64,000 nucleotides of DNA from Eledone cirrhosa (lineage: Eukaryota). The DNA lies in NCBI GenBank assembly GCA_964016885.1, contig OZ024740.1, forward strand, positions 285,262,001-285,326,000, given 5' to 3'. Shown in pieces: positions 3,069-27,340 of the stretch. Position 1 is the first letter of the stretch, and every line of letters starts with the position of its first letter. The translations under genes and the position numbers were made by a program. Under the pieces are notes generated by a model, which was not told where the DNA came from, searched no databases, and worked only from the letters and a program-made list of their open reading frames with translations.

Positions 3069-3264
3069 ATATATATATATATATTAAGTATTTCTGTGGA
3101 AAAGGTAAAGGAAAGAAGAGTGCTCTATATATAGTACAGAGCTACTTAATTATGTAATAAACAACACAATATAATTATTCCATTACCTAAGGTTTCACGA
3201 AGTTAGATGATTCTAACAGAAATGTCTGATATCGCTCATCATGTGTTGTTTATTACATAATTAA

Positions 3265-3297
<33 letters not shown>

Positions 3298-3681
3298 CTA
3301 AAATTCAAATTCTCCGTTTTCCTCTCTGATTTTAAATTATTATTTTACATGTTTTTAATATGTCTCAATCTGTTGGACCCTTCCTAAAAACTAAACTTCT
3401 CTCAATCTGTTGGACCCTTCCTAAAAACTAAACTTCTCCTAAAGTCACCCATTTCCTGCCCACCCACCCCCACACACCACCATTGGTATATGGTCCAATT
3501 ATAACTCAGCGACTTTAGTAAGTTCTCTAACAAATCAGTATAGCAACGCTACCAACCCGGTTACTACTCCTTAAGTTGAGACCTGTTTGATGGATTGACT
3601 GCGGAAATTTGAAAAGTCTAAGCACTCAATGACAATGTCACAGATAAAGATAAATTCACCTCCTGCTGCACATATAAGCTC

Positions 3682-3770
3682 ACATGTCTGACAAGATGTC
3701 GAAAAAGAGTCGGGTCCTGTCACCTTCATTGTACCCTGAGCTGATCGATATCGAAACAATTGTAATATGT
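3682..3770 (+). ncRNA. Type-I hammerhead motif with extended stem II (G8A variant)
   Basis: ACAUGU-CUGACAA-GAUGUCGA..UCGAUAUC-GAAA-CAAUUG-UA-AUAUGU, then AAUAAA. Confidence 0.7.
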
Positions 3771-3914
3771 AAATAAAGTTTGTACATATGCTGCAACACT
3801 GGATTCAACTCTTTTAAATCTCTCTCTCTTTGTCTCTCTCTATACATACATATACATACACACACATATATATATACACACATACTATATATATATATAT
3901 ATATGTATATATAT

Positions 3915-4207
3915 CTAAAAGTCTAAAGTCTCTCTTAAGCCAGAAGGCTCATTTGGCCGGTACTTATCCCTGTTTCATGGTGTGAAGCGACTGAGAATAC
4001 ACAACTCCCCCCACCCCCCTTGGACATGATGCCAGTCCATCGCAGAGTTAAACCCCCAGCTATTGCTGGTACTCATTTTCAGCTGAGTATACTGGAGCAA
4101 CGTGAAATGCGGTGTTTTGATCAAGAACACAACATGCAACCCAGGAATCGAACCCATGACATTATGATCGTAAGTCCAACACCCTTACCACTAGTCCACG
4201 TGCCTCC
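3915..4207 (-). mobile_element. tRNA-derived SINE family B
   Basis: Head ggaggcacgtggactagtggtaagggtgttggac..gggttcgattcc; tail ..gactttagacttt. Other copies at 11811-12085, 33360-33545 and 53545-53820. Confidence 0.8.
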
Positions 4208-4220
4208 ACATGTGTGTGTG

Positions 4221-4283
<63 letters not shown>

Positions 4284-4646
4284 TCATCATCATCATCAAA
4301 TGAAATTTTTTCCATTTATATGTGCATATATATAAGAAAATTATATATATATATATATATATACACATATAAATGGAAAAAATTTCATTTCCCACTCTTA
4401 GTACGGCTGTTACTTAAATATAAGTATGTATACGTACATACATATGTATACAGACGTACAGTAGTATGTATAAGTAACAGCTGTACTAAGAGTGGGAAAT
4501 AAAATTTAGTTTCATTTTTTCCGTTTATCGTTTTCGGTGCACCTGGCCAATTAACCCACTCGATATGCAAATTGGGCTACTCAGCCGTTAATATGCATAA
4601 GGAAAGTATATACTTTCAGACGTTCAATCATCTGGCAGGAAGGTAT

Positions 4647-4689
4647 ACGTTGCTGACGATAGCTAATAAGCTTGAAACTAGTACAGCGT
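4647..4689 (+). ncRNA. Minimal type-I hammerhead ribozyme motif
   Basis: ACGUUG-CUGACGA-uAGCU aaua AGCUu-GAAA-CUAG-UA-CAGCGU; stem I covaries with the 20890 copy. Confidence 0.8.
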
Positions 4690-4963
4690 TCCTTTGTCAG
4701 TGTTGAACAAACGAGCAACGATGGTTGCTAGACACTACGGCTTAATACGGGATGTTTGTTTACAAACACATCGAGCATTATAATAAATGTTCGGTGAATC
4801 CATACGTACATATATATATATATGTGTGCATGTATGTATATATATATATACATACTACTGTACGTCTGTATTCATATATGTATGTACGTATACATACTTA
4901 TATATACACACATATATATATATATACATATATACATATATGTACATATATACATATATACAT

Positions 4964-7900
4964 CTCTCTCCCTCCACAAATCTTAATTCTAGCGTATTTT
5001 CAAAACAATCCATATTTCGTATCAAGTCCAAATAGCCAATCTATCGCTAAAACAAACTACATTTTCTGTTTCTATTAATTGCTAAATACGTAAGTTTTTG
5101 GACGTATTTAACAGAACAAATTTTGTATTTTTGTTAATCGCTTGTTAAATGCAAGGACCCCATTCAATCATTACCTTCTTGCTAGCTATTTTCAAACCTT
5201 AATTCCTAACGTATTTTCAAACCTCAATCCCTAATTCTAGCGTATCTTCAAAACAAAAAAACAAAATCCTTTCCTTCTTCCTTCTTCGAAGGCACGGGGC
5301 GGTCAAACGCCTAACACTCACAGCCATCATGTGGCCCCCTCCCCTCGCTCTCTCTCACTCTCTCTCTATAAATATATGATAGGAATTCACTTCGCCAAAT
5401 TTCATTTCATTGCTTGCTGTCCACGATATTCATGTAAACGTAATGTACAGACTTCATCTCTCTCCCTCCACAAATCTTAATTCTAGCGTATTTTCAAAAC
5501 AATCCATATTTCGTATCAAGTCCAAATAGCCAATCTATCGCTAAAACAAACTACATTTTCTGTTTCTATTAATTGCTAAATACGTAAGTTTTTGGACGTA
5601 TTTAACAGAACAAATTTTGTATTTTTGTTAATCGCTTGTTAAATGCAAGGACCCCATTCAATCATTACCTTCTTGCTAGCTACCCAACATCCCTCCCACC
5701 CCCACGCACCACCATTGCTATTACGTGGACCAATCATAAAACAGAGCCCCCACGCATCACCAGTATTATTACGCGGACCAATCAGAAACCAGAGGCCTAT
5801 ACTATCGCTTGCCTGGTTGCCTTTCGATATACGATATATGATGGATGGATGGACTGCGGAATCCTGGAGAGTGGAGGTGAGAGAGAAAAATCTGGACGCT
5901 CAGCGACAATGCCAATGCCAAAGATAAAGACAAATTCACCTCTTGGACGAGAATGCGAGCACTCCTCATTGTTTCGACCGCGGACGGCTAACATAACCCC
6001 ATCGCCCCCCACCCCTCACCGCCCCCAACCCCCAAACGCAATCCAAAACTTCAGAGTTGGTACCATAAATGTAGGCACCCTAAAGGGTCGCGCTAACGAG
6101 GTTGTAGAAATGCTTGAACGTAAGGAGGTCGATGTTTGTTGTATTCAAGAGACCAGGTGGAGGGGTGGGTCTGCTAGGTTCATTGAGGGTAAAAAACGAT
6201 GTTATAAGCTTTTCTGGGTGGGAAACGACGATGGGCTGGGTGGAGTAGGAATCATGGTAGCAGAAAAGTGGGCAGATAAGATAATAGACGTAAATAGAGT
6301 GAACGACAGAATAATTAAAATACGACTTGTCCTCAATAGAACTACGGTGACAGTAATATCTGCGTACGCACCCCAATCCGGACTGCCCGGCACTATAAAA
6401 GACAGATTCTATGAGACATTGATGCTAACTACCTCCCAAATATCCGACAGTGACTATATAATTATCGCAGGCGACCTAAATGGTCACGTTGGACAACATT
6501 GTGACGGCTACGACGAAATCCATGGAGGCTATGGGTTTGGTACTAGAAATGAGGAAGGCTCCAGAATCCTGGAATTCTGTGATGCAAATAACCTAACTAT
6601 CTGTAACACTAACTTCAAAAAACGTGACAATCACCTGATCACCTATAGATCCGGGGAACACACAAGCCAGGTAGATTATATCCTTACCAGAAGACGTGAC
6701 AGAGTGTCTGTTGTTAACACTAAATCCCTCCCCCATGAAGAATGCACCTCCCAACACAGACTGATAATTAGCGACCTCATAGTCAGGACGAGACGTACTC
6801 GACAACAGAAGAGGACTATCCTCAGGAGGAAAATATGGAAGCTAAAGGACCCCACAGCCAGGAATAAATTTCAAAGCATATTACTTGATGCTTTCGACAG
6901 TAAGGAAGAACATTTAGAGTCGGACAATATAGAGGGAGAGTGGGAATTTCTGAAAGCAAACCTGCTGTTGGCGACAGACGAGGTCTGTGGCTGGAGCAGG
7001 CCTGTAGGCAGGAGGAGAGTAACATGGTGGTGGAACAGTAAGGTGGAGGGGTCAATTAAGGCCAAAAAGCAGGCTTGGAAAGTATGGCGGGATGGGGGAA
7101 GTAGAGAGGACTATCAAGTGGCCAGGAGGGAAGCTAGGAGACAAGTGTACTTAGCAAGAAGGGAAGCTGAGGAAAGAAAGTTCAAGCATGTTCTACAACG
7201 CGATGACCAAAAACGTGAGGTGTTCAGGATTGCTAGGCAATGCGTCAAGGAAAACCGTGATATTGTCGGGGAGAAGTGTGTACTAAACGACGATGGCACA
7301 CTTGCCATCACCGACGCTGATAAGAAGGTAGCTTGGAAGTGTCACTATGAAAGGCTACTAAATGAGGAGAATAATTGGGAGAAAGGCAGTCTCCCCCATA
7401 TCGACCCAATAGAGGGACCAGCAGTGTTAGTCGAGGGGAGTATAATAAGTAAGGCAATCAAGGATATGAAGACTGGTAAGGCGGCTGGGCCTTCGGAAAT
7501 AGTTGCTGAGATGCTGAAGGCATCTGGCACGGTGGGACACACCATGGTCACCCGCATAGTTAACCAAGTCGTACAGAATGGGGTTGTTCCGAAGGACTGG
7601 CATAGCAGCATCATCGTTAACTGTTATAAGGGTAAAGGAGACGCCCTAGATAGGAGTAACTATAGAGGCATTAAATTAATCGACCAGGTCATGAAGGTCA
7701 CGGAAAAAGTAATAGCGCAACTAATCAGAGAGAGAATTGACCTAGATGAAATGCAGTTCGGGTTTGTGTCAGGCAAAAGTACCACAGACACTCTTTTCAT
7801 AGTACGACAACTACAGGAGAAGTACCTAGCTAAAGGTAAACCCCTCTACTTAGCTTTTGTCGACTTGGAGAAAGCCTTCGACAGAGTCCCCCGCTCCATT

Positions 7901-9480
7901 ATCTGGTGGGCTCTTAGAAAACTAGGCGTTGACGAATGGCTTGTGAGGGCTATACAAGCCATGTATAAAGAAACAGTCAGCAAGGTTAGAATTAACAACG
8001 AATATAGTGAAGAGTTTAGCGTAAAAGTTGGCGTCCATCAGGGCTCTGTTCTCAGTCCACTACTATTTATTATTGCCCTTCAGGCTATAACAGAGGAGTT
8101 CAAGACAGGCTGCCCATGGGAACTCCTATACGCAGACGACCTGACACTCATAGCGGAATCAATGGCCGAGCTAGAGAAGAAATTCCAAACATGGAAGCAC
8201 GGCCTAGAGTCAAAAGGACTTAAAATTAACCTGGCTAAGACCAAAGTACTAGTTTGTAGGAAAGAAAACAAGGCGGCGGTCCCTTCTGGGAAATGGTCGT
8301 GCTCGGTGTGTAGGAAAGGCGTAGGTAGAAACTCCATTTTATGTCCTAAATGCAAAGTATGGGTGCATAAAAGATGTAGTGGGATCACAGGTAAGCTAAC
8401 TAAGAACATAGATTTTACATGTGGCCGGTGCTCTGGTGCAATAAGAAGCAGCAAGTGCCCACAAACTACTAGCTCTTTCAATTGCGCAGAGGGTTCTATA
8501 GAAATAGTGGACAGCTTCCGTTACCTGGGCGATAAAATCAGCAGTGGGGGAGGGTGCTCTGAAAGTACTGTAGCTAGAGTCAGAACTGGTTGGAAAAAGT
8601 TCAGAGAGCTTATACCACTATTAGCTGCTAAAGGGTTCTCACTAAAAATGAAAGGCAGGTTGTACGATGCCTGCATACGAACAGCAATGCTGCATGGCAG
8701 TGAGACCTGGGCATTGTGTGCAGAGGATATACGCAGACTAGAGAGGAACGAAGCTTGCATGCTCCGCTGGATGTGTAACAGTAATATACGTGAACGGCAA
8801 AGCATAAACGAACTAAGGAAAAAATTAGAGATAAGAGGGATCAGATGTTGTTTACTCGAGAGAAGGCTACGTTGGTATGGACACGTGATGCGCATGAAAG
8901 TCGATAGCTGTATAACAAAGTGCAGGGCAATAAAGATAGACGGTAGTCACGGAATAGGCAGACCTAGAAAAACCTGGGACGAGCTGATAAACTCCGACAT
9001 CACACACTTACACCTCTCCAAGACAATGTCACTGGACCGAGACCTTTGGCGGTACTCAGTAACAGAGAAGACCCGCCTTACCTAAATATATAGTAAAACC
9101 TACTCCAGCCAGTAGGCATCTCTAACAAAATACACCCCGTCCCACCACCACCACCCCCACCCGATCCACACCACCCCGTTCTATGTAAAGTTATGTTGGT
9201 GCCGCGCCATCGAGGCCGAAACAAATGAGATCGTGTAGGTGTCACGACAAAAAAACACACAGTCCACGCTGTAATGTGGCCGTGTAGGCAACACGGTAAA
9301 AACCTCCCAGACCCACACTGTAAATGTGGTTGGTGTTAGGAAGGGCATCCAACTGTAGAAAACCTGCCAGACAGTCCTATGCGAGCAAGACAATCACTCT
9401 TGCCTCAAGTGGGACTACCCCCGTCCAAACCCATGCAAGCGTGGAACACGGACGTTAAACGTTGATGATGATGATGATGA
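4964..9480 (+). mobile_element. Full-length RTE-clade LINE, apparently intact
   Basis: Single long APE-RT ORF, 3' UTR ending in (GAT)n at about 9463-9481, and candidate low-complexity TSD tacatatatacat at 4951-4963 and 9481-9493. Confidence 0.92.
5849..9085 (+). CDS. RTE ORF: APE endonuclease + reverse transcriptase + PHD finger (1078 aa from first ATG)
   Basis: Endonuclease motifs TINVGTL, CIQETRW, SAYAPQ, GDLNGH, VDYIL, SQH; RT motifs NYRGI, FVDLEKAFD, GVHQGSVLSP, YADD; RTE-like C-terminus LRWYGHV..GRPRKTW. No stops. First in-frame ATG is 5849 (alternatives 5909, 5915). Confidence 0.93.
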   Translation: MDCGILESGGEREKSGRSATMPMPKIKTNSPLGRECEHSSLFRPRTANITPSPPTPHRPQPPNAIQNFRVGTINVGTLKGRANEVVEMLERKEVDVCCIQETRWRGGSARFIEGKKRCYKLFWVGNDDGLGGVGIMVAEKWADKIIDVNRVNDRIIKIRLVLNRTTVTVISAYAPQSGLPGTIKDRFYETLMLTTSQISDSDYIIIAGDLNGHVGQHCDGYDEIHGGYGFGTRNEEGSRILEFCDANNLTICNTNFKKRDNHLITYRSGEHTSQVDYILTRRRDRVSVVNTKSLPHEECTSQHRLIISDLIVRTRRTRQQKRTILRRKIWKLKDPTARNKFQSILLDAFDSKEEHLESDNIEGEWEFLKANLLLATDEVCGWSRPVGRRRVTWWWNSKVEGSIKAKKQAWKVWRDGGSREDYQVARREARRQVYLARREAEERKFKHVLQRDDQKREVFRIARQCVKENRDIVGEKCVLNDDGTLAITDADKKVAWKCHYERLLNEENNWEKGSLPHIDPIEGPAVLVEGSIISKAIKDMKTGKAAGPSEIVAEMLKASGTVGHTMVTRIVNQVVQNGVVPKDWHSSIIVNCYKGKGDALDRSNYRGIKLIDQVMKVTEKVIAQLIRERIDLDEMQFGFVSGKSTTDTLFIVRQLQEKYLAKGKPLYLAFVDLEKAFDRVPRSIIWWALRKLGVDEWLVRAIQAMYKETVSKVRINNEYSEEFSVKVGVHQGSVLSPLLFIIALQAITEEFKTGCPWELLYADDLTLIAESMAELEKKFQTWKHGLESKGLKINLAKTKVLVCRKENKAAVPSGKWSCSVCRKGVGRNSILCPKCKVWVHKRCSGITGKLTKNIDFTCGRCSGAIRSSKCPQTTSSFNCAEGSIEIVDSFRYLGDKISSGGGCSESTVARVRTGWKKFRELIPLLAAKGFSLKMKGRLYDACIRTAMLHGSETWALCAEDIRRLERNEACMLRWMCNSNIRERQSINELRKKLEIRGIRCCLLERRLRWYGHVMRMKVDSCITKCRAIKIDGSHGIGRPRKTWDELINSDITHLHLSKTMSLDRDLWRYSVTEKTRLT

Positions 9481-10359
9481 TACATATATACATATATATA
9501 TGTACATATATGTATAAAGTCAATGATTAAAGATAATAACTTTCAGTAAGCAGAAGTTAAAGTCATGGTTGGAGAAACAAGTTAAGATATACTGGTGGGA
9601 AAATAATTCCTTTAGTTTTGTTTTTAACCTAATAACACCCATTATAGTCTCAAGAAGTTGAGGATATGGTTGAAATTATAGCTCTTGTGTGTTGTAAAAT
9701 AAGAAATAGAACTTCCAGCTGATAAATATTTCACTCTGGTATGTCTTGGGTCAGGAAGCACGATGGTTGAGTGGATTAACTGTTGGCATACGATATTGTA
9801 TCTTGATTGCCTGACACACCAGTCAAGACTAGGGCACCATTGCATTGTGTTCTATTTGCTACATTTTACTTAACTGGATAACTAGTACATGTTTCATTTG
9901 GGAATATATTTGTAATAGACTAGTTGTCACTCATAAATTTTATACCATAACACCCCCACCCCCACCACCCACAAATTCTGGTCTTTCAAGCTTTATTACT
10001 TTATGAAAAATATTTTGAAGGATAATTTTCCTTTGAAATATATATTTTATAACTATTATATAAACATCAACTCAAAAAATGTTCCAATATTTGGTAATTT
10101 TTTATTTACCATATATACTCGAATATAACCACCCCTCGCCACCATTTTACCATTGATTTTTGGGGTGACATATTCCTCGGTTTATATTCAAGTATATAAA
10201 GTAGTTCCCACTAAAGATTAGAACATACATTGAATATTACAGTTAAAATTATGTGGAGGCTGCTAGATAATTACAGACCTTTAAAATGATCAAATTAACC
10301 ATGACATCTAAATTATCTTCCAATAAGATGGATTATAGATTTTATTAAAATTTCCTTAT

Positions 10360-12090: not shown

Positions 12091-12752
12091 CAGGGGCGTG
12101 CAACAGGCAGCTCGCAGGCCACAATCCGGCCCACCAGACCAGTCAGAGTGGCCTGCGATGACTGTTTTTAATTTTTACCTTGTAGGCTCATTTAGAATTT
12201 TTTTCATAAGCATATGGAGGCACATGGCTTAGTGGTTAGAGCATTGGGCTTGCAATCGAAAGGTAGTGAGTTCAATTCTCAGACTGGGTGATGTGTTGTT
12301 TCCTTGAGAAAGACACTTTATTTCACATTGCTCCAGTTTACTCAGCTGTAGAAATGAGATGATAGGACTGGGGTCCATATCATTCCACTGCAAAGTGGTC
12401 GTGGAGGTGCCATGGCAAAAAAGCACCCAGCACTCACTGTAAATGAGGTTGGTGTTAGGAAGGGCATCCAGCCTTAGAAATCAAGCCAGAATCGAATCAG
12501 TTCCCGTCCCACCCTTGCAAGCAGGGAAAAGCGGACGTAAAATGAAATGAATGAATAATACATTTTTCTGTTTGTTGACCTATACTAAAGGGCTTCACTG
12601 ATAGGGTTATGTGTGTTATAATTTCCCAATTCCATGTTATGGAAAGAATTTGTGGTGAATCTTTGGAATAGTGCTTAATAAATATTAATGGCCCTAATAG
12701 TTGTTCCAATGTTCAAAAGTGGCCTGCCAATAGAAAATGTTGCACACCCCTG
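12091..12752. mobile_element. hAT-type MITE with nested SINE
   Basis: TIRs caggggcgtgcaac / gttgcacacccctg; 8-bp TSD ctttaaac/ttttaaac. Confidence 0.8.
12216..12554 (+). mobile_element. SINE family A copy
   Basis: Near-identical to 2725-3068. Confidence 0.85.
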
Positions 12753-15134
12753 TTTTAAACTAATAGGCTGAATTTAGAAATATTATATTTTAAAAGTATG
12801 TATGGGCTCCATATCTGTTGGTGGAGTCTTAAGGATGCTGTAGTGACATAGCAATGTCTTAAGTATTTTAAACCTGGTGGAGCCTAGCCCTCTCCAGTTC
12901 TGAACGCAACAAATTTTTTCCAGAGTAAAAAAAAGAGAGCGACAGAGAGGAAGTAAGAAAGCTTTATAGCGGAAGAGTTGATCCAGTACTGGATTTACTA
13001 TTTTTTTTTACTTCTAAATGATGAAAGGTAAAGTTGACCTTGGTGTCATTTGAACTTAGAATACAGAAAGCCAGAATGACTACTGCAGAGCATTTCATCT
13101 AACGTACTAACAACTCTACCAATTAGCCATCTACATTTTAAAATATAATTAGTTATAACTGGATAGCTGAAGCCAGTAGAGATAATGTAGGATGGTGCAA
13201 CTATTTCTTGAGTTGTGATAAATATATCTGTTTTTTATATAAGTAATTACTCATCAGAACAGCGATAAATGTAAAAGATGACTGTGGCCACCACCTTGAA
13301 AGGATTTTAAACAATCATACAATAGATCAGAACATTTCATCTCAAAGTTATATGACAACATCTACTGTGTTCGGAATTTTGAAAAATATTTTGTGCAACG
13401 TATCTCAAAATAAATTACTGAATGCGGCAGTATACCTTGTCTCGTGTATAACAAATAACTGTTTCTACTTTTGGCACAAGGCCAGCAATTACCCAGTACA
13501 TTACTGGTACTTTATTTTATCGACCCCGTAAGGATGAAAGGCAAAGTGAACCTCAGCGGGATTTGAACTCATACCGTAAAGGGACATAACTATGCTGGAA
13601 AGCATGGCGTCCAACTCTCTACCGATACTGCCAAACAAATAACAATAGTGAGTAGTATATTTTTCTATTTATTTATAGCAATAGTGAGTAGTATATATTT
13701 TTTTTTTTTTTTTGCTAAAATTACCATTAAAGCTTTAAAGTTATTTCATTTCTTACTCTATATACATAATTTGCTAAATCTTTTAATGAAATGATGAAAT
13801 AGAATTTTGCTAAAAAAATTCTTGAACGTGGTTAGTTTTGATAATCTTTGTTTATTTCAAGCAAAGCATCCCTGCTAATGAATCAATTAGATACTCTGTT
13901 CTAATATATAGCTATTTGTTGGATTACATTGTCATAAGTGGAATAAGTGTTCAGCCCTTAGTATGCACATCCTGCAAGTGTTCTGCATTGAAAGGCAGTA
14001 TGTCTGTGAATCAGGATATTTCGGGGAAAAGTGTGCTAGAAATGACACTGATGCACTTAGCACCACTGATGTTTAAAAGAAAGAGATCTGGAAATGTTAT
14101 GAGAGGCTGATGAATGGGAGGAAGACTGACTACCCCCAACCTGCCCAACAGAAGGGTTAGCTATTGAAATCAACAGTTATAGGGTCAAAGCAATCAAGAA
14201 GATGAAGAATGGTAAAACCAGAGATAGTCGCCAAGATGCTAAAAGCATGGAGGTTTGGTTAGCATGTTCAAAATATAAAAGAATCATTTTACTGAAATAT
14301 AAACATAGCCTGTAATGCACTGATTAATGTGGATAAAATAAGTATATTATTTTATGTATGTAAAAAAATTAGACAGCAGATATTTGAATTTCACATTGTG
14401 AGAAGGAATTGAGTGGTGGTAAGAAACTCTCAGGAGAGCTGGACAGCAGATCTTCACAGAAGAAACTCCCCACAAGCATGTGTTTTGGCCCTTAACTTCT
14501 AAGGAAGAGTTAATTAGATTAACGCAGAAACGATGTTTATGTATAATATAAAGGGGAAATGTTTTCTTACAGACAATTTTTTTATTTTTGTTTTGAATTA
14601 TCTATGTCTCTCTTGAAATTGTTTCTTAATTGTAATGGATAAAACCAAAGAATTTGGAAGAAATTTAATAATATAACAAATTTTCTCATTATTAAGCTGT
14701 TACCATTAAAAATATTAGAAACACAAATGATTAATCAGAATAGATGTCAAGCTAAAACCAAATGGTAGGTTCAGAATTAAAAACTTCTTCAAGTGTCTCC
14801 ATCCAAGGAAGAAGTAGTAGATGTGTGAATTAAAGCCCTCAAGATGACTGACTCATTTTGTTACATAAGTGATTTAATTCTACAGACTGATGCTTCTGGT
14901 TATGTCATCACAGTGAGTGTGCTATCTATAGAGATGAAACTCAGAGAACTACTTCCTGTGCTGATCAACCATAGCATACCCTTACATTTTAAGAAGCATG
15001 TTTACAATGTTTGCATTTGAAGTGTGGCTTCGTGGAAATGGGAGATATGATTACAAAAACTTGATCACAATAGAATCCAAACCTGAAGGAACAACATATG
15101 TAAAACTGTATAGTAGTTATCGCTCATTGAAATA

Positions 15135-15765
15135 TCTATATATATAAAACTGAATATGTCTGTCTGTGTGTGTGTGAGTTTGAATCGCTAAAACTAGAGA
15201 AGTACCCAACCGACTTTTTTCAAACTTTACATGTGTATTACTTATGTTTCAGAGAGTGTTATGCACATAAAAAATTGATCTCCTAGGGCCTGCATTAGGT
15301 GAAAAACTGCGTTTTTTCAGCTTTTTAGGGGCTCTTTGAGGCGTTACGTGAGACCGATTTCCTTGAAATTGTAACTATGTATCAGTCAGTCTCTTCTTCA
15401 TACCGTAAGCAAAGAAAATCCAACTTTTTTATGGCCTAGGGCCCGCATTAGGTTAAAAAATTCATTTTTTCAGCTTTTTAGGGCTTTTTTGAGGCATTAC
15501 GTCTAACCGATTTTCCCGAAATTTCAAGGCATATTATGCACATAAAAAAAATTTATTTTCTTGATCCCCTAGGGCCCGCATTAGGTGAAAACCTGCATTT
15601 TTCCTGCTTCATCAAGGAAAATCTTAAAGATTATCCAGCCATCAGAGTATTTGGTTTATTTTCTTTACATATTGTCCAGGCATGCAGTTTTTCCCACGAT
15701 TAGGTCTGTTGGCGGCCCGCATTCCAAATTACCTTATCCCGTGCAACGCCGGGTTCCACTGCTAG
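15135..15765 (+). mobile_element. Non-autonomous Helitron
   Basis: A|TC 5' end, subterminal hairpin cccgtgcaacgccggg, CTAG|T 3' end, no TSD, internal subrepeats. Confidence 0.85.
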
Positions 15766-16170
15766 TCTATTATAAATCTTGGCAACTGAAACCAACTCGT
15801 GAGATCCCACAATTCCTAGATTTGGAGACATTCCTAGAAGTTTCAACTAGTACCAATGCTATACTACTTGGAGTAAAGAAACAGTTTGTGTAGTTCTATT
15901 TTTACCATTATTTCCTTCAAATCTTGTGAATAAATTCTGAAATTCATTTTATTTTGTGCAACCTATTAATAATTGTTTCTACTTTTAACACAAAGCCAGC
16001 AATTACCCAGTGCATTACTGGTACTTTATTTTATCGACCCCCGTAAGGATGAAAGGCAAAGTTAACCTCGGCGGGATTTTAACCTATTAATAATATTGCT
16101 TAACTTTAGTACTACAGATGGTTGAATAGGGTGCAAGAAAGGCCAAAGCAAAGAACTAGACAATCTAGAC

Positions 16171-17027: not shown

Positions 17028-17495
17028 CACATTATAGGGTTAGCCTAGGTGAGTCATGGAGTGAAGGGGTGCATATTATAGGGTTAGCCTAAGTCAGGCA
17101 AGGAGTTAAGGGGTGCGCAATATAGGGTTAGACTAGCTGAGTCAAGGAGTGAAAGGGTGCACATTATAGGGTTAGCCTAGGTGAGTCATGGAGTGAAGGG
17201 GTGCATATTATAGGGTTAGCCTAAGTCAGTCAAGGAGTTAAGGGGTGCGCAATATAGGGTTAGACTAGCTGAGTCAAGGAGTGAAAGGGTGCACATTATA
17301 GGGTTAGCCTAGGTGAGTCAAGGAGTGAAGGGGTGCATATTATAGGGTTATCCTAGGTCAGTCAATGAGTGAAGGGGTGCACATTATAGGGTTAGCCTAG
17401 GTCAGTCAAGGAGTTAAGGGGTGCGCATTCTAGGGTTAGACTAGCTGAGTCAAGGAGTGAAAGGGTGCACATTATAGGGTTAGCCTAGGTCAGTC
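17028..17495. repeat. 44-bp satellite with a 3-unit higher-order pattern, running into an assembly gap
   Basis: Unit attatagggttagcctaggtgagtcaaggagtgaaggggtgcac, about 10.5 copies visible. Confidence 0.95.
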
Positions 17496-17695
17496 NNNNN
17501 NNNNNNNNNNNNNNNNNNNNNNNNNNNNNNNNNNNNNNNNNNNNNNNNNNNNNNNNNNNNNNNNNNNNNNNNNNNNNNNNNNNNNNNNNNNNNNNNNNNN
17601 NNNNNNNNNNNNNNNNNNNNNNNNNNNNNNNNNNNNNNNNNNNNNNNNNNNNNNNNNNNNNNNNNNNNNNNNNNNNNNNNNNNNNNNNNNNNNNN
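17496..17695. other. Assembly gap (200 N)
   Basis: Run of N. Confidence 0.99.
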
Positions 17696-17910: not shown

Positions 17911-18138
17911 CATATATATATACATACATATATATATATTTATATATTAGTAAAAAGGAAAAGAAAATGCTGACAAATTTTTCCCAGTTAAAAATAGATT
18001 AATTAGGAATAAGTATAAAATTAGTAATAAGTATTGGTTAGTATTCAGTTTTAGTTTTAAGTTTTTACCGGTTGCGCATTTCTAATGCTTTTCAAAAAGA
18101 ATTTGAGATAGAGCGCTCGTGATGTTTGCTCTAATCTG

Positions 18139-18471: not shown

Positions 18472-18514
<43 letters not shown>

Positions 18515-18700
18515 CATACATACATACATACATATATATATACACATATACATATACATACATATATATATATATATACATACACATATACATACATACA
18601 TATACATATATATATATATACATATACATACATATATATATATACATACATTTATATATATACATATACATATATATACATACATATATATACTATATAT
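18139..18700. repeat. Compound (TA)n/(TACA)n microsatellite
   Basis: Seen directly; similar tracts occur at 4210-4280, 4800-4960, 17845-17945, 19950-20160 and 22335-22430. Confidence 0.97.
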
Positions 18701-18920
18701 AGGAACGATCGACTTTCGTCAAATCGGACCAAGGGAACAATGTTTCCGTTGGTCTTTCCAATTGCTAATACTATCTATCGGTCGCAACTCCAGGTAGAAG
18801 GAGCAACGTGAAATAAAGTGTCTTGCTCAAGGACATAACGCATCGCCTGGTCCAGGAATCGAACTCACAACCTTACGATTGTGAATCCAATTCTCTAACC
18901 ACTCAGCCACACGCCTTCAC
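18700..18920 (-). mobile_element. tRNA-derived SINE head with a different tail
   Basis: gtgaaggcgtgtggctgagtggttagag..gagttcgattcc plus the core ccttgagcaagacactttatttcac. Confidence 0.7.
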
Positions 18921-18940
18921 TATATATATATATATATATA

Positions 18941-19920
18941 GTTCAGAGAGCTTATACCACTATTAGCCGCTAGAGGGTTCTCCCTAAAAATGAAAGGCAG
19001 GTTATACGATGCCTGCATACGAACAGCAATGCTGCATGGCAGTGAGACCTGGGCATTGTGTGCAGAGGATATACGCAGACTAGAGAGGAACGAAGCTTGC
19101 ATGCTCCGCTGGATGTGCAATAGTAATATACGTGAACGGCAAAGCATAAACGAACTAAGGAAAAAATTAGAAATAAGAGGGATCAGATGTTGTTTACTCG
19201 AGAGAAGGCTACGTTGGTACGGTCACGTGATGCGCATGAAAGACAGCTGTATAACAAAGTGCAGGGCAATAAAGATAGACGGTAGCCACGGAGTAGGCAG
19301 ACCCAGAAAAACATGGGACGAGCTGATAAATTCCGACCTCACACGCTTACACCTCTCCAAGACAATGTCACTGGACCGAGACCTTTGGCGGTACTCAGTA
19401 ATAGAGAAGACCCGCCTTACCTAAATACAAAGTAAAAACCTACTACAGTCAGTAGGCATCTCTATCAAAACACCCCCCCCCCCCCCCCCGTCCCACCACC
19501 TCCACCCCATCCACACCGCCCCTTTCAATGTAAAGTTATGTTGGTCCCACAACATCCAGGCCGAAACAAATGAGATCGTGTAGGTGTCACGACAAAAAAA
19601 CACACAGTCCACACTGTAAATGTGGCCGTGTAGGCAACACGGTAAAAACCTCCCAGCCCCACACTGTAAATGTGGTTGGTGTTAGGAAGGGCATCCAGCT
19701 GTAGAAAACCCGCCAGACAGTCCACGCTGTAATGTGGCCGTGTAGGCAACACGGTAAAAACCTCCCAGCCCCACACTGTAAATGTGGTTTGGTGTTAGGA
19801 AGGGCATCCAACTGTAGAAAACCCGCCAGACAGTCCTATGCGAGCAAGACAACCACTCTTGCCTCAAGTGGGAAAACCCCCGTCCAAACCCATGCAAGCG
19901 TGGAACACGGACGCTAAACC

Positions 19921-19950
<30 letters not shown>
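18941..19950 (+). mobile_element. 5'-truncated RTE copy of the same family as 4964-9480
   Basis: Near-identical to 8599-9480; starts right after (TA)n, has a tandem duplication in the 3' UTR and a (GAT)n tail. Confidence 0.92.
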
Positions 19951-19951
<1 letters not shown>

Positions 19952-19991
19952 ATATATACATATAGATACATACATACATATATATATATAA

Positions 19992-20032
<41 letters not shown>

Positions 20033-20085
20033 CATACATATACATACATATATATATATACATATACATACATATATATATATAC

Positions 20086-20164
<79 letters not shown>

Positions 20165-20319
20165 ATATACACGGGTGTGTATGATTGTGTATAGAAGATT
20201 ATATTAATAAAAGGAATTCCAACTTTGCCTGATTTACTCGTTTTATTTACAATCCTTTAAAATTTATAATCGTATTAGAATGAAATAGTATGGTAGAATA
20301 TTAAATGTTAAGTGTTAAT

Positions 20320-20358
20320 TGAACAAGTACTTTCATGCTTTCGCAATCTTCAGGTTCA
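20320..20358 (-). ncRNA. Mirror copy of the 20437-20475 hammerhead motif
   Basis: Exact reverse complement within the long palindrome. Confidence 0.78.
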
Positions 20359-20436
20359 TAATGTGTGGTGACAGTCAAGTTTGCAATTTTCAAACTGACA
20401 GTTGAAAATTGCAAACTTGACTGTCACCACACATTA

Positions 20437-20475
20437 TGAACCTGAAGATTGCGAAAGCATGAAAGTACTTGTTCA
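20437..20475 (+). ncRNA. Minimal type-I hammerhead ribozyme motif
   Basis: UGAAC-CUGAAGA-uUGC GAAA GCAu-GAAA-GUAC-UU-GUUCA; GNRA-capped stem II, palindromic AAGUACUU. Confidence 0.78.
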
Positions 20476-20632
20476 ATTAACTCTTAACATTTAATATTCT
20501 ACCATACTATTTCATTCTAATACCATTATAAATTTTAAAGGATTGTAAATAAAACGAGTAAATCAGACAAAGTTGGAATTCCTTTTATTAATATATATAT
20601 ATATATACATATACATACATATACATACATAC

Positions 20633-20665
<33 letters not shown>

Positions 20666-20889
20666 AACAATTAAGTTAAAAATGTACATCCACATATGTA
20701 TACTGAAATACCAGTATGCATATGAATACACACACGTATACATATGTAGATGTACCGAGTTTTTCACTGGTCACTTTACTGTGAGTGTCCAGCTATTCTG
20801 TATGTAAACACACAGACAAACCGGTTTTTAGAGTCATACTGGTTTTTGAGGAAACACCTTTCCTCTATTCTCCAGAAAGCCAGACAAGG

Positions 20890-20934
20890 AATATTGAACT
20901 AGTTTCGATGTTGTTACATCTCATCAGCAATATT
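20890..20934 (-). ncRNA. Minimal type-I hammerhead ribozyme motif (intact core)
   Basis: AAUAUUG-CUGAUGA-GAUGU aaca ACAUC-GAAA-CUAG-UU-CAAUAUU: 7-bp stem I, 5-bp stem II, palindromic ACUAGU stem III. Confidence 0.85.
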
Positions 20935-21230
20935 TACCTATCTTCCGGCCTCTCTAGAGAATCGTAAAAGCACATATCGTTATATGCTTTTTCTATGAAA
21001 ATTAGTAGTGGGCAGACTAATTTGCATAGAGCGTGAGTACGTACCGGTTCAACGGAGACGATAAAAACAAATAACGAAACAAAATTAAATTTCGTTTCGT
21101 TTGTAACTCAGCGTCAGTCATACAAAAGTGAGTTACAAACGAAACGAAATTTAATTTCGTTTCGTTATTTGTTTTTATATATATATATATATATACATAT
21201 ACATACATATATATATATATATATATATTT

Positions 21231-22035
21231 CTAGGGCAGGTAAAATTTCCGAGATCCATGGACGAGTTCTCTCCAGCGCTCTCTGTCCCTCATTATCGCT
21301 GCCATGTCCTGCGTCTCCAACAGACCAGTGTCTGTCCTTAGGGCATCAGCATATGTTAACCTTGGTCTTCCTCTTCCAGTGTGTCCATGCAGGGGCTCCC
21401 ACAGGAGCACTGAGTGCAATGTCAACTCTGGATGTCGGTGAGCATGTCCAGCTAACCTCAGTCTCCTCTGTGTCACTTTTGAGCTGACTTTTGGGATGCT
21501 CCCATACAGCTCTGTGTTTTTCATCCTCAGTGTATACTGATTAATCTTCAGAGCCATCCTCAGCATTCTCGTGTAGCACCCATCCACCATTTGAGTGAGT
21601 TTCTTGGTCAGTGTCCAAGTCTCAGACCCGCACAGCAGCACAGACTCCACTACAGCAATGAAGAGGCGGATTTTCAGGTCTTTACGAAGGTCCGACTTCT
21701 ACACCGATCCCAAGCTGTGGCACGCCGCCCAGGCTTTGCTCTTCCTCTCAACCACATCATCTTCCGTATTCCCAATCTTTACTGTAGCACCAGCTCAGAG
21801 CAGGAGAGTTAAGGCGAAAAAGATATCAGATGCTGAATTTGCCGACGACATAGTTTTGGTGATAAATACAGTGAAAGAGGCAGAGGATTTGATGCAGGAG
21901 GTTGAGACTGTCGATGAGTGTGGGGCTGAGAATGAATGAGACTAAAACAAAATATCTGGTAGAGAATGTTGAGAAGCCAGAGGGGATCACTAATATAGGC
22001 GGGAAGCTGCTGGAATTGGTTGAGGACCTCCTGTA
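21231..22035 (-). mobile_element. RTE-like LINE fragment with 5' inversion
   Basis: Minus part: VESVLLCGSETW..RRLRLAGHAHRH..GRGRP. Plus part 21777-22035: FADDIVL..GLRMNETKTKY..VEDLLY. Flanked by (TA)n. Confidence 0.85.
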
Positions 22036-22049
22036 TATATATATATATT

Positions 22050-22331
22050 ATTTTCATCATTTCATTTCATTTTACGTCCGCTTTTTCCCTGCTTGCAAGG
22101 GTGGGACGGGAACTGATGCTGGCTTGATTTCTACAGCTGGATGCCCTTCCTAACACCAACCTTATTTACAGTGAGTGCTGGGTGCTTTTTTGCCGTGGCA
22201 CCTGCACGACCACTTTACAGTGGAATGATAAGGACCTCAGTCCCTATCATCTCATTTCTACAGCTGAGTAAACTGGAGCAATGTGAAATAAAGTGTCTTA
22301 CTCAAGGAAACAACACATCACCCGGTCTGAG

Positions 22332-22332
<1 letters not shown>
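22050..22332 (-). mobile_element. SINE family A copy, 5'-truncated
   Basis: Reverse complement of about 2787-3060. Confidence 0.8.
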
Positions 22333-22390
<58 letters not shown>

Positions 22391-22511
22391 CATACATATA
22401 TATATATATACATATACATATATATATATATTTTACGAAGAATGAACTCTGACGTGAACTTATCTCTAAAAACCCATTCCGGCTCATGTAAGGAACGGTT
22501 TTTAGTTATTA

Positions 22512-22552
22512 TGCCCTTGAGAAGCCCATTCGGGCGAAACGTAGGTAGGTGC
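22512..22552 (+). ncRNA. Hammerhead-like motif, U3-A8 variant
   Basis: UUGAGAA-GCCC auuc GGGC-GAAACGUA; stem I short and ambiguous. Confidence 0.55.
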
Positions 22553-22914
22553 TATTTTAAATAAACATGTTTTAACGGTCTATTCTCCTGTATTTTACTT
22601 CTCCACGTGCTTACCCTCTGCTAATTCTCTCGCCCACTAGATATTAACACTTCTAATATTTAACACTGCCGGCACTAGTATTGAGCACCCTCTGCATGCA
22701 TCACGCTCCCTAACTTTGTAATCACTTTGCTCTTTCTCTCATCCCCCCCCCCCCCCCCCGGCGTGCCTGATCGCAGGTATAAAATACATCTTGCTTGTTT
22801 CCAAGGACAGAATTTATCTATCTAAATTATCTTACGGACGACTTGTTGATTTGAGAATGTAAGCATTGTCTTCCATATTCCGTAGTCTTCCCAATGAGCA
22901 GTGTTTTTAAACTC

Positions 22915-25900
22915 TACAATTCAAATTCCCCGTTTGTTTCTCTCGGATTTTCAATTAATATTTACATGTTTTTAAATGATTTGTCTCATTCTGTTGGACC
23001 CTTCCTAAATCAAATCCTTCTCCTAAAGTTACCCATTTCCCGCCCTCCCACCCCCACACACCACCATTGCTAATGCTCTAATCATAACTCAGTGGCTTTA
23101 GTAAGTTCCCTAATAAATCAGTATAGCAAAGCTACCGCCCCGGTTACTACTCCTTAAGTTTAGACCTGTTTGATGGGTTGACTGCAGAGATTTGGAAAGT
23201 CTAAGCATTAAATGACGATGTCACAGATAAAGATAAATTCACCTCCTGCTGCAGGATGAAAATACAAAGACCCCTCTCTATTTCAGACACAAATGACCAA
23301 CATAATTCCGTCTCCCACACCCCTCCCTGCCCCTCTAACCCATCCATCCCACCCTCCCAACTTCAGAGTTGGTACCATGAACGTAGGCACATTAAAAGGT
23401 CGCTCAAATGAGGTTGTAGAGATGCTTGAACGTAAAGAAGTTGATGTTTGTTGTATTCAAGAGGGTGGATAGGGGGGAGGGGGTCTGCCAGATTCATCGT
23501 GGGTAAAAAACGATGCTATAAACTTTTCTGGGTGGGAAATGACAACGGACTGGGTGGAGTAGGAATTATATTAGCTGAAAAATGGGTAGATAAGGTAATC
23601 AACGTAAATAGAGTAAATGACAGAATAATTAAAATAAGGCTAGTATTAAATAAAACTACTGTGACAATAATATCCGCTTATGCACCCCAATCTGGTCTAC
23701 TTGACGTTATAAAGGACAGGTTCTATGAGACGCTAATGCACACTACCTCCCAAATAACCGACAGCGAATACCTAATTATTGCTGGCGATCTAAACGGCCA
23801 CGTTGGACAACATAGTGATGGCTATGATGGAATCCATGGAGGCTATGGGGTTGGAAATAGAAATGAGGAAGGCTTCAGAATCCTGGAATTCTGTGACGCC
23901 AATAACCTAACTATCTGTAACACAAACTTCAAAAAACGTGAAAACCACTTGATCACCTATAGATCAGGGGAACACGCTAGCCAGATAGATTATATCCTTA
24001 CTAGAAGATGGGACAAAGTGTCTGTTGTAAACACTAAATCCCTCCCCCGTGAAGAATGCACCTCCCAACATAGCCTAGTAGTTAGTGACCTCACAGTCAG
24101 AAATAGACGTACTCGACGACAGAGGAAGCCTACCTTGAGGAGAAGAATATGGAAGTTGAAGGACCCCATAGACAGTGACAAATTTAAAAGCTTATTACTT
24201 GATGCCTTTGACAATAAGGAAGAGCAATTAGAGACGTGCGATATAGAGGAACAGTGGCAATTCTTGAAAGTGAACCTGCTGAAAGCTACGGATGAAATCT
24301 GTGGCTGGAGCAGACCTATTGGCAGGAGGAGAGTAACTTGGTGGTGGAACAGTAAGGTAGAAGAGACAATCAAGGCCAAAAAGCAGGCTTGGAAAGTATG
24401 GCAGGATGGGGAAGTAGAGAGCACTATCAAGTGGCCAGGAGAAAAGCTAGGAGACAAGTGTACCTTGCAAAAAGGGAAGCAGAGGATAGAAAGTTCAAGC
24501 ATGTTCTACAACATGAGGACCAAAAAAGGATTGCTAGACAATGTGTCAAGGAAAACCGTGATATTGTTGGGGAGAAGTGTGTCCGTAATGAAAATGGTGT
24601 ACTTGCCCTCACTGATGCTGATAAGAAGATAGCCTGGAAGTGTCACTACGAGAGACTATTAAATGAGAAGAATAAGTGGGAAGAAGATAGTCTGCCCCAA
24701 ATCGATCCAATAGAAGGATCAGTGGTGCAAGTTAAAGGTAGTATAATAAGTAAGGCAATCAAAGATATGAAGATAGGCAAGGCAGCTGGGCCTTCGGAGA
24801 TAGTTGCTGAGATGTTGAAGGCATCTGGAATGGTGGGACATACTATGGTCACCCGTATAGTTAACCAAGTAATACAGAATGGGGTCATACCAAAAGACTG
24901 GCGTAGCAGCATCATCATTAACTGCTACAAGGGTAAAGGAGATGCTCTAGATAGAGGAAACTATAGAGGCATTAAGTTAGTTGACCAGGTAATGAAGGTC
25001 ACAGAAAGAGTTATAGCGCAACTAATCAGAGAGCGAATTGATCTAGATGAAATGCAGTTTGGGTTTGTGTCAGGTAAAAGTACCACAGACGCTCTTTTCC
25101 TTGTACGACAACTACAAGAGAAGTACCTAGCTAAAAGTAAACCCCTCTACTTAGCTTTTGTAGACCTGGAAAAAGCCTTTGACAGAGTCCCCCGCTCCAT
25201 TATCTGGTGGGCTCTTAGAAAACTAGGTGTAGATGAATGGCTTGTGAGAGCTATACAAGCTATGTATAATGAAGCAGTCAGTAAGGTTAGAATTAACAAT
25301 GAATATTATGAAGAATTTAGTGTAAAAGTTGGTGTTCACCAAGGCTCTGTCCTTAGCCCCCTCCTATTTATTATTGCCCTTCAGGCTATAACAGAGGAGT
25401 TCAAGACCGGCTGCCCATGGGAACACCTATACGCAGATGATCTAACGCTCATAGCTGAATCAATGGCTGAACTAGAAAAGAAATTCCAAACATGGAAGCA
25501 TGGCCTAGAATCAAAAGGCCTTAAAGTTAACTTGTCTAAGACTAAAGTCCTAGTTTGTAGAAAGGAAAATAAGGCACAGGTACCCTCAGGGAAATGGCCT
25601 TGCTCAGTGTGTAGGTAAGGAGTAGGCAGAAATTCAATTTTATGTCCCAAATGCAAAGTACGGGTACATAAAAGATGTAGTGGGATCACAGGTAAACTAT
25701 CTAAGAACGTAGACTTTATATGTGGCCGATGCTCAGGTGCAATAGGTAGCAAGTGTCTACAGGATACTAGCCCTTTCTATTGCCCAGATGGTTCTATAGA
25801 AATAGTAGAAACTTTCCGTTAATTGGGTGACAAAATCAACAGTGGTGGAAGGTGTTCTGAAAGTACAGTAGCCAAAGTCAGAACGGGATGGAAAAAGTTC

Positions 25901-27095
25901 AGAGAGCTTATACTGCTGTTGGCCACAAAAGGTTTCTCTCTAAAAATGAAAGGCAGGCTGTATGATGCTTGTATACGAACAGCAATGCTACATGGCAGTG
26001 AGACATGGGCATTGCGTGCAGAGGACCTGCGCAGACTGGAAAGGAACGAAGCATGTATGCTCCGTTGGATGTGTAATAGTAATATACATAAAAGGCAAAG
26101 CATAAATGAACTAAGTGAGAAATTAGGAATAAGAGGGATCAGATGCTGTTTACTCGAGAGAAGACTACGTTGGTATGGCCATGTGATGCGCATGAAAGAC
26201 GACAGCTGTATAAAAAAGTGTAGGGCGATCAAAATTGATGGTAGTTACGGAGTAGGTAGACTCAGAAAATCCTGGGACGATCTGATAAATTCTGACCTTA
26301 CACACTTGCACCTCTCTAAGACAATGTCACTGGACCGAGATCTTTGGGGCGGTATGCAGTAATACAAAAGACCCGCCTTGCTTATGTACAAAGCAAAACC
26401 TACAGTCAAGTAGGCACCTCTTAACCAAATATACACCCCAATCCACTACCCCTACCCTATCCTCCCACCAACACCACCCTCTCTCTATAAAGTTGGTACC
26501 ACAACATCCAGTTCAAATAAATGAGATGATCGAGATCGTGTAGGTGTCACATTTATGGAATTTATGCCAGTTCCTTTCCTACATATCGAACATGACCATT
26601 TCCCTGATGGAATCAGAGTATTGTCCTGTCTTCTACTTATCAACACTTTTGTTTTAGCTATGTTCACTCTCAGGCCTCTTGATCCCAACTGCTGTTTCCA
26701 TAGCCAGAATTTGTTCTCCACTGATTCCAAATATACACCCCAATCCACTACCCCTATCCTATCCTCCCACTAACACCACCCTCTCTCTATAAAGTTGGTA
26801 CCACAACATCCAGTCCAAATAAATGAGATCGAGATCGAGATCGTGTAGGTGTCACAAGAAAAAAACACACAGTCCACGCTGTAATGTGGCCGTGTAGGTA
26901 ACACGGTAAAAAGTTCCCAGTTCCACACTGTAAATGTGGTTGGTGTTAGGAAGGGCATCCAGCCGTAGAAAACCTGCCAGATAGTCCTATATGAGCGAGA
27001 CATGGTCACCCGACCAACCTTGCCTCAAGTGGGACAACTCCCGTCTAACCTATGCTAGCGTGGAAAATGGACGTTAAACGAAGATGATGATGATA
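22915..27095 (+). pseudogene. Near full-length decayed RTE LINE (related subfamily)
   Basis: ORF pieces 23448-24632, 24389-25618 and 25823-26362 are collinear with the intact ORF but broken by frameshifts and stops. PHD Cys pattern retained; (GAT)n tail. Confidence 0.92.
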
Positions 27096-27240
27096 TATAT
27101 ATATATATATAATAGCAATATTAATGAGAGTAAATTTTACTCATTTACTAGGTGTTTTAGTTCTATGCAATGATAGGATCATGCAGAGCTGTTATATAGT
27201 TATAGTTTGTTTACAAACCAAAGAATTTAAGGCACTTAAT

Positions 27241-27340
27241 AACTGACAATTGTTTCTACCATGGTTATGCTACATATAGCAAATCATTCTATTTAACAAT
27301 TTGCCATTAGTGAGTATAGATCGTGGGTGTCATCAGAGTT
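27241..27340 (-). ncRNA. Type-I hammerhead motif with long stem II insertion
   Basis: AACU-CUGAUGA-(73 nt)-GAAA-CAAUUG-UC-AGUU; GUC cleavage triplet, palindromic ACAAUUGU. Confidence 0.62.

Follow-up and report, generated by a model that had tools for sequence, protein, structure and literature searches.

The left part of a 64,000-nt stretch of the Eledone cirrhosa genome (contig OZ024740.1, positions 285,262,001–285,326,000; hereafter the window) carries nine hammerhead ribozyme motifs beside (TA)n tracts. How did these motifs come to lie there, and do they belong to one system? Two of them, 20320 and 20437 (motifs and modules are named here by motif start), are the arms of a single palindrome and are 97.7% identical, so that the nine motifs represent eight insertions. 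It is likely that Penelope-like elements (PLEs) supplied the endonuclease and reverse transcriptase by which all eight were placed into (TA)n, and that at least one family, represented by modules 4647 and 20890, is a non-autonomous passenger of such enzymes (i.e. a non-LTR (long terminal repeat) retrozyme or a mini-PLE). The interest of this family is that an abundant hammerhead unit free of open reading frames (ORFs) itself bears the PLE insertion signature, which consists of a 3' end fixed at two places, a tail in inverted orientation and insertion into TA.

Hammerhead motifs and their setting

All nine motifs reported in the initial annotation are present in the window. They were compared with a strict type-I descriptor (CUGANGA or UUGANAA, stem II of at least 3 bp, GAA, palindromic stem III, UH, and stem I of at least 3 bp) and with a relaxed one, both composed after the motifs had been seen. 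The strict descriptor returned five sites (4653+, 20353-, 20442+, 20927- and 27336-) against a background of 0.010 per window in 967 dinucleotide shuffles of 1-kb blocks, and the shuffled control that had been proposed as a check thus came out in favor of the motifs. The relaxed descriptor also found 3688+ and 18095-, with a background of 0.97 matches per shuffled window. Across 249 shuffles, the number of equal-or-better matches expected was 0 for 3682, 4647, 20320, 20437, 20890 and 27241, 0.004 for 18062, 0.008 for 22512 and 0.38 for 3180; the descriptor alone therefore gives 3180 no support. Beyond 27.4 kb, in the half of the window that holds the gene MRPL3, there were zero descriptor matches, as had first been judged by eye.

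The core was tested as C3/U3-U4-G5-A6-N7-G8/A8-A9, G12-A13-A14, A15.1-U16.1 and H17 in hammerhead residue numbering, with stem I open. A type-I core with three helices is present at six of the nine sites (4647, 20320, 20437, 20890, 27241 and 22512), the last being counted in the U3-A8 form with weak helices; 3180, 3682 and 18062 fail. The CUGANGA/GAAA core originally ascribed to the whole set is accordingly intact in five sites, replaced by a U3-A8 variant (UUGAGAA, itself intact) at 22512, and damaged in three. At 3682 it reads CUGACAA, a G8A change without a C3U partner that breaks the C3-G8 pair, and this hammerhead is predicted to be inactive. At 18062, UUGAAAA (U3-A8 type) is combined with GCA for GAA (A13C). 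The motif at 3180, already described as defective, lacks C3 and the 5' strand of stem I, its core being cut at an inversion junction. The palindromic stem III, another shared feature of the initial description, is perfect in seven of the nine sites and non-palindromic at 22512, where only 2 bp of stem I lie beside the core. An unpaired base stands at the start of stem II in 4647, 20437 and 27241. The single hammerhead match to Rfam was HH9 at 20874-20945(-), with 36.5 bits versus a gathering score of 52; the scan gave no hammerhead match at 4647, and the other Rfam matches in the window were AT-repeat microRNA noise and two tRNA matches in short interspersed elements (SINEs). Single motifs fold no better than shuffles (z -1.5 to +0.8). 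The motif common to 4647 and 20890 recurs at 32 loci in viral contigs, none homologous to the module bodies (E <1e-3), and these were set aside as unrelated; metagenome contigs held 0 matches to it.

The eight insertions belong to seven unrelated families. Among the 28 module pairs compared, the local alignment of 4647 with 20890 reached a z of 11.2, and the other 27 pairs all had z <2. The view that several different families are present is thereby upheld, though not in the form that all differ, which the 4647/20890 homology and the 20320/20437 palindrome rule out. Fold-back ends, also attributed to several modules at the outset, take the form of head-to-head inversions in four of the eight insertions; the other four have no inversion.

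Proximity to (TA)n is general, with each of the nine motifs 55–248 bp from a (TA)6+ tract. The left 28.5 kb of the window is a transposon nest with 46 such tracts, versus 6 in the remaining 35.5 kb, and 34% of it falls within 300 bp of one. Copies of long interspersed elements (LINEs) and SINEs with (GAT)n tails also end at these TA tracts. Since motifs, LINEs and SINEs all lie beside them, the cluster reflects a shared target and not one system; the motif positions track (TA)n density, and the idea of a single coherent 24-kb unit was rejected. Considered as a whole, the cluster is a TA-rich transposon nest of an ordinary kind.

The 4647/20890 family and its insertion ends

Aligned over 438 columns, modules 4647 and 20890 share 61% identity, and the region upstream of the hammerhead suffices to show the homology, scoring 114 where none of 500 shuffles exceeded 74. 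The units measure 434 and 466 nt, have a GC content of 0.35–0.36, and contain no frame from Met longer than 50 codons. Their predicted circular folds are much more stable than those of shuffled sequences (z -7.0 for 4647 and -9.7 for 20890; -3.2 and -6.5 without the AT-rich hairpins) and resemble each other in shape: stem I is extended and has the hammerhead at its tip. A consensus built from the two sequences has 78 pairs, of which 18 differ at both partners; helices I and II, with 10 pairs, contribute 4 of these, which is suggestive only. The tails of the two modules end at a homologous position.

Copies elsewhere were sought in public sequencing runs with the segment 20170-21180, which covers two of the eight insertions (modules 5 and 6 of Table 1). 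Out of 24 runs listed, 14, under 11 organism labels, hold 14–79% of its words. Ten of these labels are further ones (runs X4–X14, 14–48% of words), and near-identical module copies therefore occur in several species. Contigs of four runs (X1, X4, X5 and X9) were aligned to the segment; X5 is a small run of unrecorded kind and was not counted as RNA. X1 contributed 3450 aligned contigs and X9 a single one. Summed contig depth in X1, which is no copy number, was approximately 0.9e5–7.9e5 in 27 of 30 bins, the three bins over a skipped TA tract being near 0; the nine junction contigs listed for this run have depths of only 11–27. Modules 5 and 6 are clearly abundant repeats. Covariation among copies, one of the checks suggested beforehand, was observed in the 4647/20890 family: in each of the four runs the stem II partners 20919 and 20908 are exchanged jointly, U-A replacing A-U, and the U-A form makes up about half of the depth in X1, most of it in X4 and all of it in X5 and X9. 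One X4 contig (record 14) spans both positions and has two differences. The 20890 core showed no change among the 40 of 62 variant rows listed, and one X4 loose end carries the cleavage triplet GUC instead of GUU.

The same contigs bear on how the unit ends. Loose ends before 21110 turned out to be the far 3' end of module 6 (five contigs in X1, one in X5 and one in X4), and the 416-nt X9 contig runs from the body start through a 69-nt piece and then into the body from its 3' end to past the hammerhead; the 20890 unit thus has a head-to-tail closure at 466 nt. Depth in X5 is 168 for the contig of the tail-body junction and 166 for the hammerhead contig, which makes the ORF-less form the common one there, although the short side of the junction contig, with 30 letters, falls one below the bridging rule. 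Within the window, module 6 consists of a 447-nt body (21110-20664, minus strand) and an inverted 69-nt tail (21110-21178), in all 515 bp or 1.1 units. The tail begins exactly at the base following the body's 3' end, with one base shared, and (TA)n lies outside both ends. At two other loci, shorter bodies are joined to the same 69-nt piece (joints 20707-21120 and 20846-21144). Module 3 follows the same plan, with a body of ∼434 nt and an inverted piece that carries the head-to-tail junction (4418-4472 versus 4903-4847, 94.7% identical; 4380-4416 versus 4507-4471, 94.6%). No array with two consecutive complete hammerhead units is present in the window, and short contigs cannot reveal arrays. 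The candidate explanation of a miniature inverted-repeat transposable element (MITE) with terminal inverted repeats was rejected because the inverted pieces are one-ended, head-to-head and of variable length between loci.

Copies of the palindrome family (module 5) end at 20200, where 20 X1 contigs run into TA, or at 20171/2 with a 30-bp extension. Deletions of 1–8 nt recur at the center, and seven joints from the left arm into 20398-20498 represent loci with unequal arms. Other copies continue 5' of 20398 into sequence outside the window (25 contigs in X1 and 2 in X4).

Taken as PLE-type features, two alternative 3' ends, i.e. a tail, were found in module 5 (30 bp) and in modules 3 and 6 (50–69 nt); the head-to-head inverted and 5'-truncated copies of the four insertions recur at other loci in the runs; and the predicted cut site is read through by 220–234 nt in the 4647/20890 copies.

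Proposed route of insertion and its alternatives

Non-LTR retrozymes were defined in metazoans, including the mussel (350–390 bp), with mobilization by PLEs proposed (Cervera & de la Pena 2020, PMC7229834). A recent study derives retrozymes from the pseudo-LTRs (pLTRs) of PLEs, reports dispersed monomers, terms "active" an array of at least two consecutive complete hammerhead units, and observed cleavage in one of nine Xenopus dimers (Li, Clavereau & Pollet 2026, 10.64898/2026.07.22.740005). The 4647/20890 family resembles these elements in being an ORF-less head-to-tail unit with one type-I hammerhead and a GC content of 35–36% (criterion <45%), in its highly self-paired predicted fold, in its dispersed monomers and in the mobilization by PLEs that is proposed for it. 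Its length of 435–466 nt is slightly above the 170–400 nt of the retrozymes of 2020, yet inside the 51–972 bp range of 2026. The family thus has the testable features of a retrozyme, arrays of complete units and RNA circles being hypothetical. Ends made of a tail plus an inversion, TA targeting and cephalopods are not described in the parts of the 2020 and 2026 papers that were consulted.

Minimal hammerheads of PLE pLTRs have been described in thousands of heterogeneous copies per genome, mostly as single dispersed motifs, with opposite-strand pairs 100–700 bp apart and a U3-A8 core variant; their palindromic stem III predicts cleavage as dimers, and low activity was found for such motifs (Cervera & de la Pena 2014, PMC4209133). 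The motifs of the window share with them the palindromic stem III, the occurrence as single motifs and opposite-strand pairs, the high heterogeneity within a genome, the unpaired base at the start of stem II (4647, 20437 and 27241) and the U3-A8 core (18062 and 22512). Two differences stand out from the published accounts. Hammerhead 20890 has canonical-like helices I and II, with its sub-threshold HH9 match, unlike the long helix II and short helix I of the minimal forms (PMC4209133); and there is no linked reverse transcriptase (RT) or GIY-YIG ORF in the window. On the latter point the initial annotation was borne out by a search of stop-free frames no shorter than 62 aa, 221 in number once those with low complexity or N had been excluded, in which no GIY-YIG match was found, although short decayed PLE remnants could escape it. 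RT matches were limited to copies of an APE-LINE, an LTR element and a decayed element at 44.3–45.3 kb.

PLE insertions often include an inverted 5'-truncated copy, with a 30–40-bp tail on one end and a bias to microsatellites (PMC8557442, PMC3846280). Given AT-rich DNA, a purified PLE protein was shown to nick both strands and to extend them; it starts reverse transcription at two adjacent internal sites bounding the tail, using mainly unprocessed RNA (PMC11167929). The modules agree with these accounts in their head-to-head inversions, palindromic junction, one-copy tail (30 bp and AC-rich in module 5), (TA)n or AT-rich targets, lack of a discernible target duplication and read-through of the hammerhead site. 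The tail of 4647/20890 differs in its length of 50–69 nt and in re-entering the same non-coding unit, not an ORF. Naiads, the best-known TA targeters, are described as being without canonical hammerheads and as leaving only remnants in cephalopods, and the partner PLE would therefore be of another clade. Octopus vulgaris is reported to have 30 recently active Penelope families (PMC13282606); the word "ribozyme" is absent from the main text of this 2026 repeat annotation. No paper on octopus hammerheads was found by title or opening of the abstract, and the supplements of PMC8557442 and PMC4209133, as well as Repbase and Dfam, may already contain octopus PLE ends that carry these motifs.

The insertions of the 4647/20890 family are best explained as follows. 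An RNA longer than one unit would serve as template, either a tandem transcript or a circle formed by hammerhead cleavage and ligation. A PLE protein would bind this RNA and nick both strands of a TA tract, and reverse transcription would begin from each of the target ends at its own internal site, the two sites lying close together; for 20890, one priming would lie at the tail end and the other 69 nt upstream. Joining of the two cDNAs head-to-head would yield the body plus inverted tail. Because the copies read through the cut site and exceed one unit, the template was not a linear cleaved monomer, and a tandem transcript or a re-ligated circle can both fit. Efficient cutting by the hammerheads is predicted for dimers only, paired through the palindromic stem III. 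Given the low activity reported in PMC4209133 and the single cleaving dimer among nine from Xenopus, cleavage activity is not to be assumed. The signature nonetheless names two priming sites to test, and implies a template longer than one unit.

Several results weigh against this explanation. Head-to-tail closure was deduced from contig adjacency in few contigs (5, 1, 1 and 1). Half of the insertions are without inversion, and no module is tied to an autonomous partner, the window being without a PLE ORF. Six RNA runs hold only 5–6% of the words, a share explicable by the TA tract alone, and give no evidence of expression. The consensus structure of 4647/20890 is a prediction from two sequences only, the 20437 arm folds no better than expected by chance (z +1.6), and modules 3682, 18062, 22512 and 27241 are without excess structure (z +0.5 to -1.5). 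In X5, a variant at 20466 with ∼30% of the depth breaks the stem III palindrome of hammerhead 20437. Lastly, the 3' ends of 4647/20890 are U/A-rich and could pair with the target, while the anole PLE start sites are AC-rich and non-homologous.

The original proposal of TA-targeting, non-autonomous ribozyme retro-modules is consequently retained for the 4647/20890 family, which is ORF-less, head-to-tail, abundant and covarying. The other six families may be the same kind of passenger or truncated PLE ends, both of which fit equally well. If every module were of the latter kind, i.e. a 5'-truncated end (solo pLTR) of an autonomous PLE, no self-propagating ORF-less unit would exist. We consider this unlikely as an account of the whole set, although 5' truncation is the usual fate of PLE copies (PMC4209133, PMC8557442) and the palindrome family extends 5' of 20398 in the X1 and X4 contigs given above. 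Nothing closes the units of 3180, 3682, 18062, 22512 and 27241, and for these five a solo pLTR is the most likely reading. In 4647/20890, by contrast, the tail leads directly into body and hammerhead without an ORF, both in the window and in contigs of full depth, and the two modules have diverged to 61% identity yet kept their length and fold.

The local APE-type LINE might instead have carried the modules as retrozyme-like passengers and inverted them through L1-style twin priming, a process that also yields a body plus an inverted piece. The LINE has an intact frame of 1159 codons, it and its SINE partners also end beside TA tracts, and modules 3682 and 22512 adjoin LINE 5' untranslated region (UTR) sequence. 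Against this, the modules do not have the (GAT)n tail and the 3' end common to the LINE and SINEs, and their second 3' end keeps one fixed position from copy to copy, and likewise in the 61%-identical pair, as in PLE tails; moreover, type-I hammerheads with a palindromic stem III have been described from PLEs and retrozymes. A LINE origin is thus improbable. DNA-level repeats, either foldback or MITE-like elements or satellite remnants with fossil hammerheads and no RNA step, would account for the TA flanks and palindromes, for the four of nine cores or stems that are damaged or weak, and for the missing RNA evidence. Since the inverted pieces are one-ended, head-to-head and unequal in length, unlike terminal inverted repeats, and covariation preserves RNA helices, we give this explanation very little weight. 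Chance matches in AT-rich repetitive DNA are practically untenable: the background of the relaxed descriptor, the expectation at 3180 and the shuffle-like folding of single motifs could be read that way, but the five strict sites, the covariation and the expectation of at most 0.008 at each of eight sites reject it for those eight.

In its boldest form, the PLE explanation would make 4647/20890 a long-lived octopod retrozyme whose copies are the prints of a PLE enzyme priming twice on circular RNA, a possibility that we put forward as speculative. If true, the 1.1-unit insertion, which extends across the cut site and the head-to-tail junction, would be sequence-level evidence for the hitherto only proposed reverse transcription of ribozyme circles into genomes by PLE proteins, and with its two mapped start sites the circle step could be tested in the in vitro PLE system that already exists. 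The presence of hammerheads in PLE ends and in animal retrozymes is established; mobilization of retrozymes by PLEs has been proposed in print, on the grounds of co-occurrence and sequence kinship. What is new here is the combination of a retrozyme-type unit with the PLE insertion signature in one family, the class itself having been described. The data also point to a ribozyme repeat content of octopods that is large and apparently unannotated.

Features of the modules and neighboring elements

Table 1. Hammerhead-bearing modules in the first 28.5 kb of the window
Feature	Coordinates	Strand	Description
Module 1	3146..3264	-	5'-truncated copy, cut within the hammerhead core (U4-A9 kept)
Module 2	3682..3770	+	CUGACAA hammerhead of type I; stem II long, stem III an 8-nt palindrome
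Module 3 inverted piece	4362..4472	-	Last ∼55 nt, head-to-tail junction and first ∼50 nt; ends in (TA)n
Module 3 body	4470..4903	+	One ORF-less monomer of ∼434 nt, 4647/20890 family
Module 3 hammerhead	4647..4689	+	Intact type-I, CUGACGA, stem III ACUAGU, predicted cut after A4683, GUA
Module 4	17948..18138	-	191-bp unit between TA tracts; damaged U3-A8-type hammerhead 18062-18097
Module 5	20170..20594	.	Head-to-head palindrome, two ∼197-bp arms, center 20397/8
Module 5 left-arm hammerhead	20320..20358	-	Intact minimal type-I, CUGAAGA, stem III AGUACU, CUU
Module 5 right-arm hammerhead	20437..20475	+	Intact minimal type-I, sequence as left arm
Module 6 body	20664..21110	-	447 nt of a 466-nt ORF-less monomer, strongly structured predicted fold
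Module 6 hammerhead	20890..20934	-	Intact canonical-like type-I, CUGAUGA, stem III ACUAGU
Module 6 inverted tail	21110..21178	+	69 nt, ends in (TA)n
Module 7, 5' part	22432..22556	+	U3-A8 hammerhead 22512-22552, weak stems I and III, directly after TA tract
Module 8	27112..27390	-	∼280-bp unit between TA-rich flanks; intact-core hammerhead 27241-27340

At the 5' end of module 1 stands a 23-bp stretch (3242-3264) that repeats the module's 3' region in inverted orientation; the direct copy extends past this repeat as a probable tail. Module 2 comes after a LINE 5' UTR fragment, and a 7-bp direct repeat (3664-3670 and 3789-3795) brackets its hammerhead where the two meet, possibly as a target duplication or because a 125-bp unit has redundant termini. 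Close to module 3, on the outer side of its inverted piece, a second short inverted duplication (4298-4324 and 4362-4388) surrounds a TA tract, as judged by eye. In module 5, an abundant family, the 30-bp AC-rich tail (20170-20199) is on the left arm only, with TA repeats on both sides. The 20890 hammerhead has a 5-bp stem II and a 7-bp stem I with a distal extension, and a predicted cut after 20897 (GUU); that at 27241 has a 73-nt stem II region, an 8-nt palindromic stem III and GUC. From module 7 onward (22432-22912), ∼360 bp that include no TA tract lead into the 5' UTR belonging to the second LINE copy; the module may extend that LINE at its 5' end or have been inserted separately.

The LINE at 5606-9085 (plus strand), which we take to be RTE-like, has an uninterrupted 1159-codon frame with an APE endonuclease, an RT and, directly after the RT, a PHD finger. 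Further copies lie at 23359-26431 and 18940-19723, and its 3' UTR and (GAT)n tail are common to the local SINEs. The latter form a tRNA-headed family (2725-3041, 12216-12536, 22083-22333 and 28015-28360) whose copies are 81–95% identical and usually TA-flanked, with Rfam tRNA matches at 2732-2795 and 12223-12286. A 79-bp segment starting with CUGAUGA is duplicated at 53818-53896 and 54101-54179, with no hammerhead partner motif under either descriptor.

Among the other repeats, a 44-bp satellite with a 132-bp higher-order period and a telomere-like TAGGGTTAG word (17028-17495) reaches the assembly gap 17496-17695. A non-coding repeat at 15134-15775 and 55598-56526 (89–92% identical), presumably Helitron-like, contains internal subrepeats, and one of its ends has a GC-rich hairpin followed by CTAG. 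The MRPL3 gene (plus strand) was recognized by an exon at 51866-52093 that is 82% identical to the 39S ribosomal protein L3 of Argonauta hians, the one match among five candidates; probable further exons were noted by eye near 36142-36275, 56842-56935, 61621-61747 and 63232-63331. Upstream of the confirmed exon, and probably intronic, is a decayed LTR retrotransposon (38732-43728, minus strand) with RT, RNase H and integrase and with LTRs 93% identical, while 50 bp past an MRPL3 exon begins a 19-bp minisatellite of ∼45 copies with a strong C skew (52143-52992).

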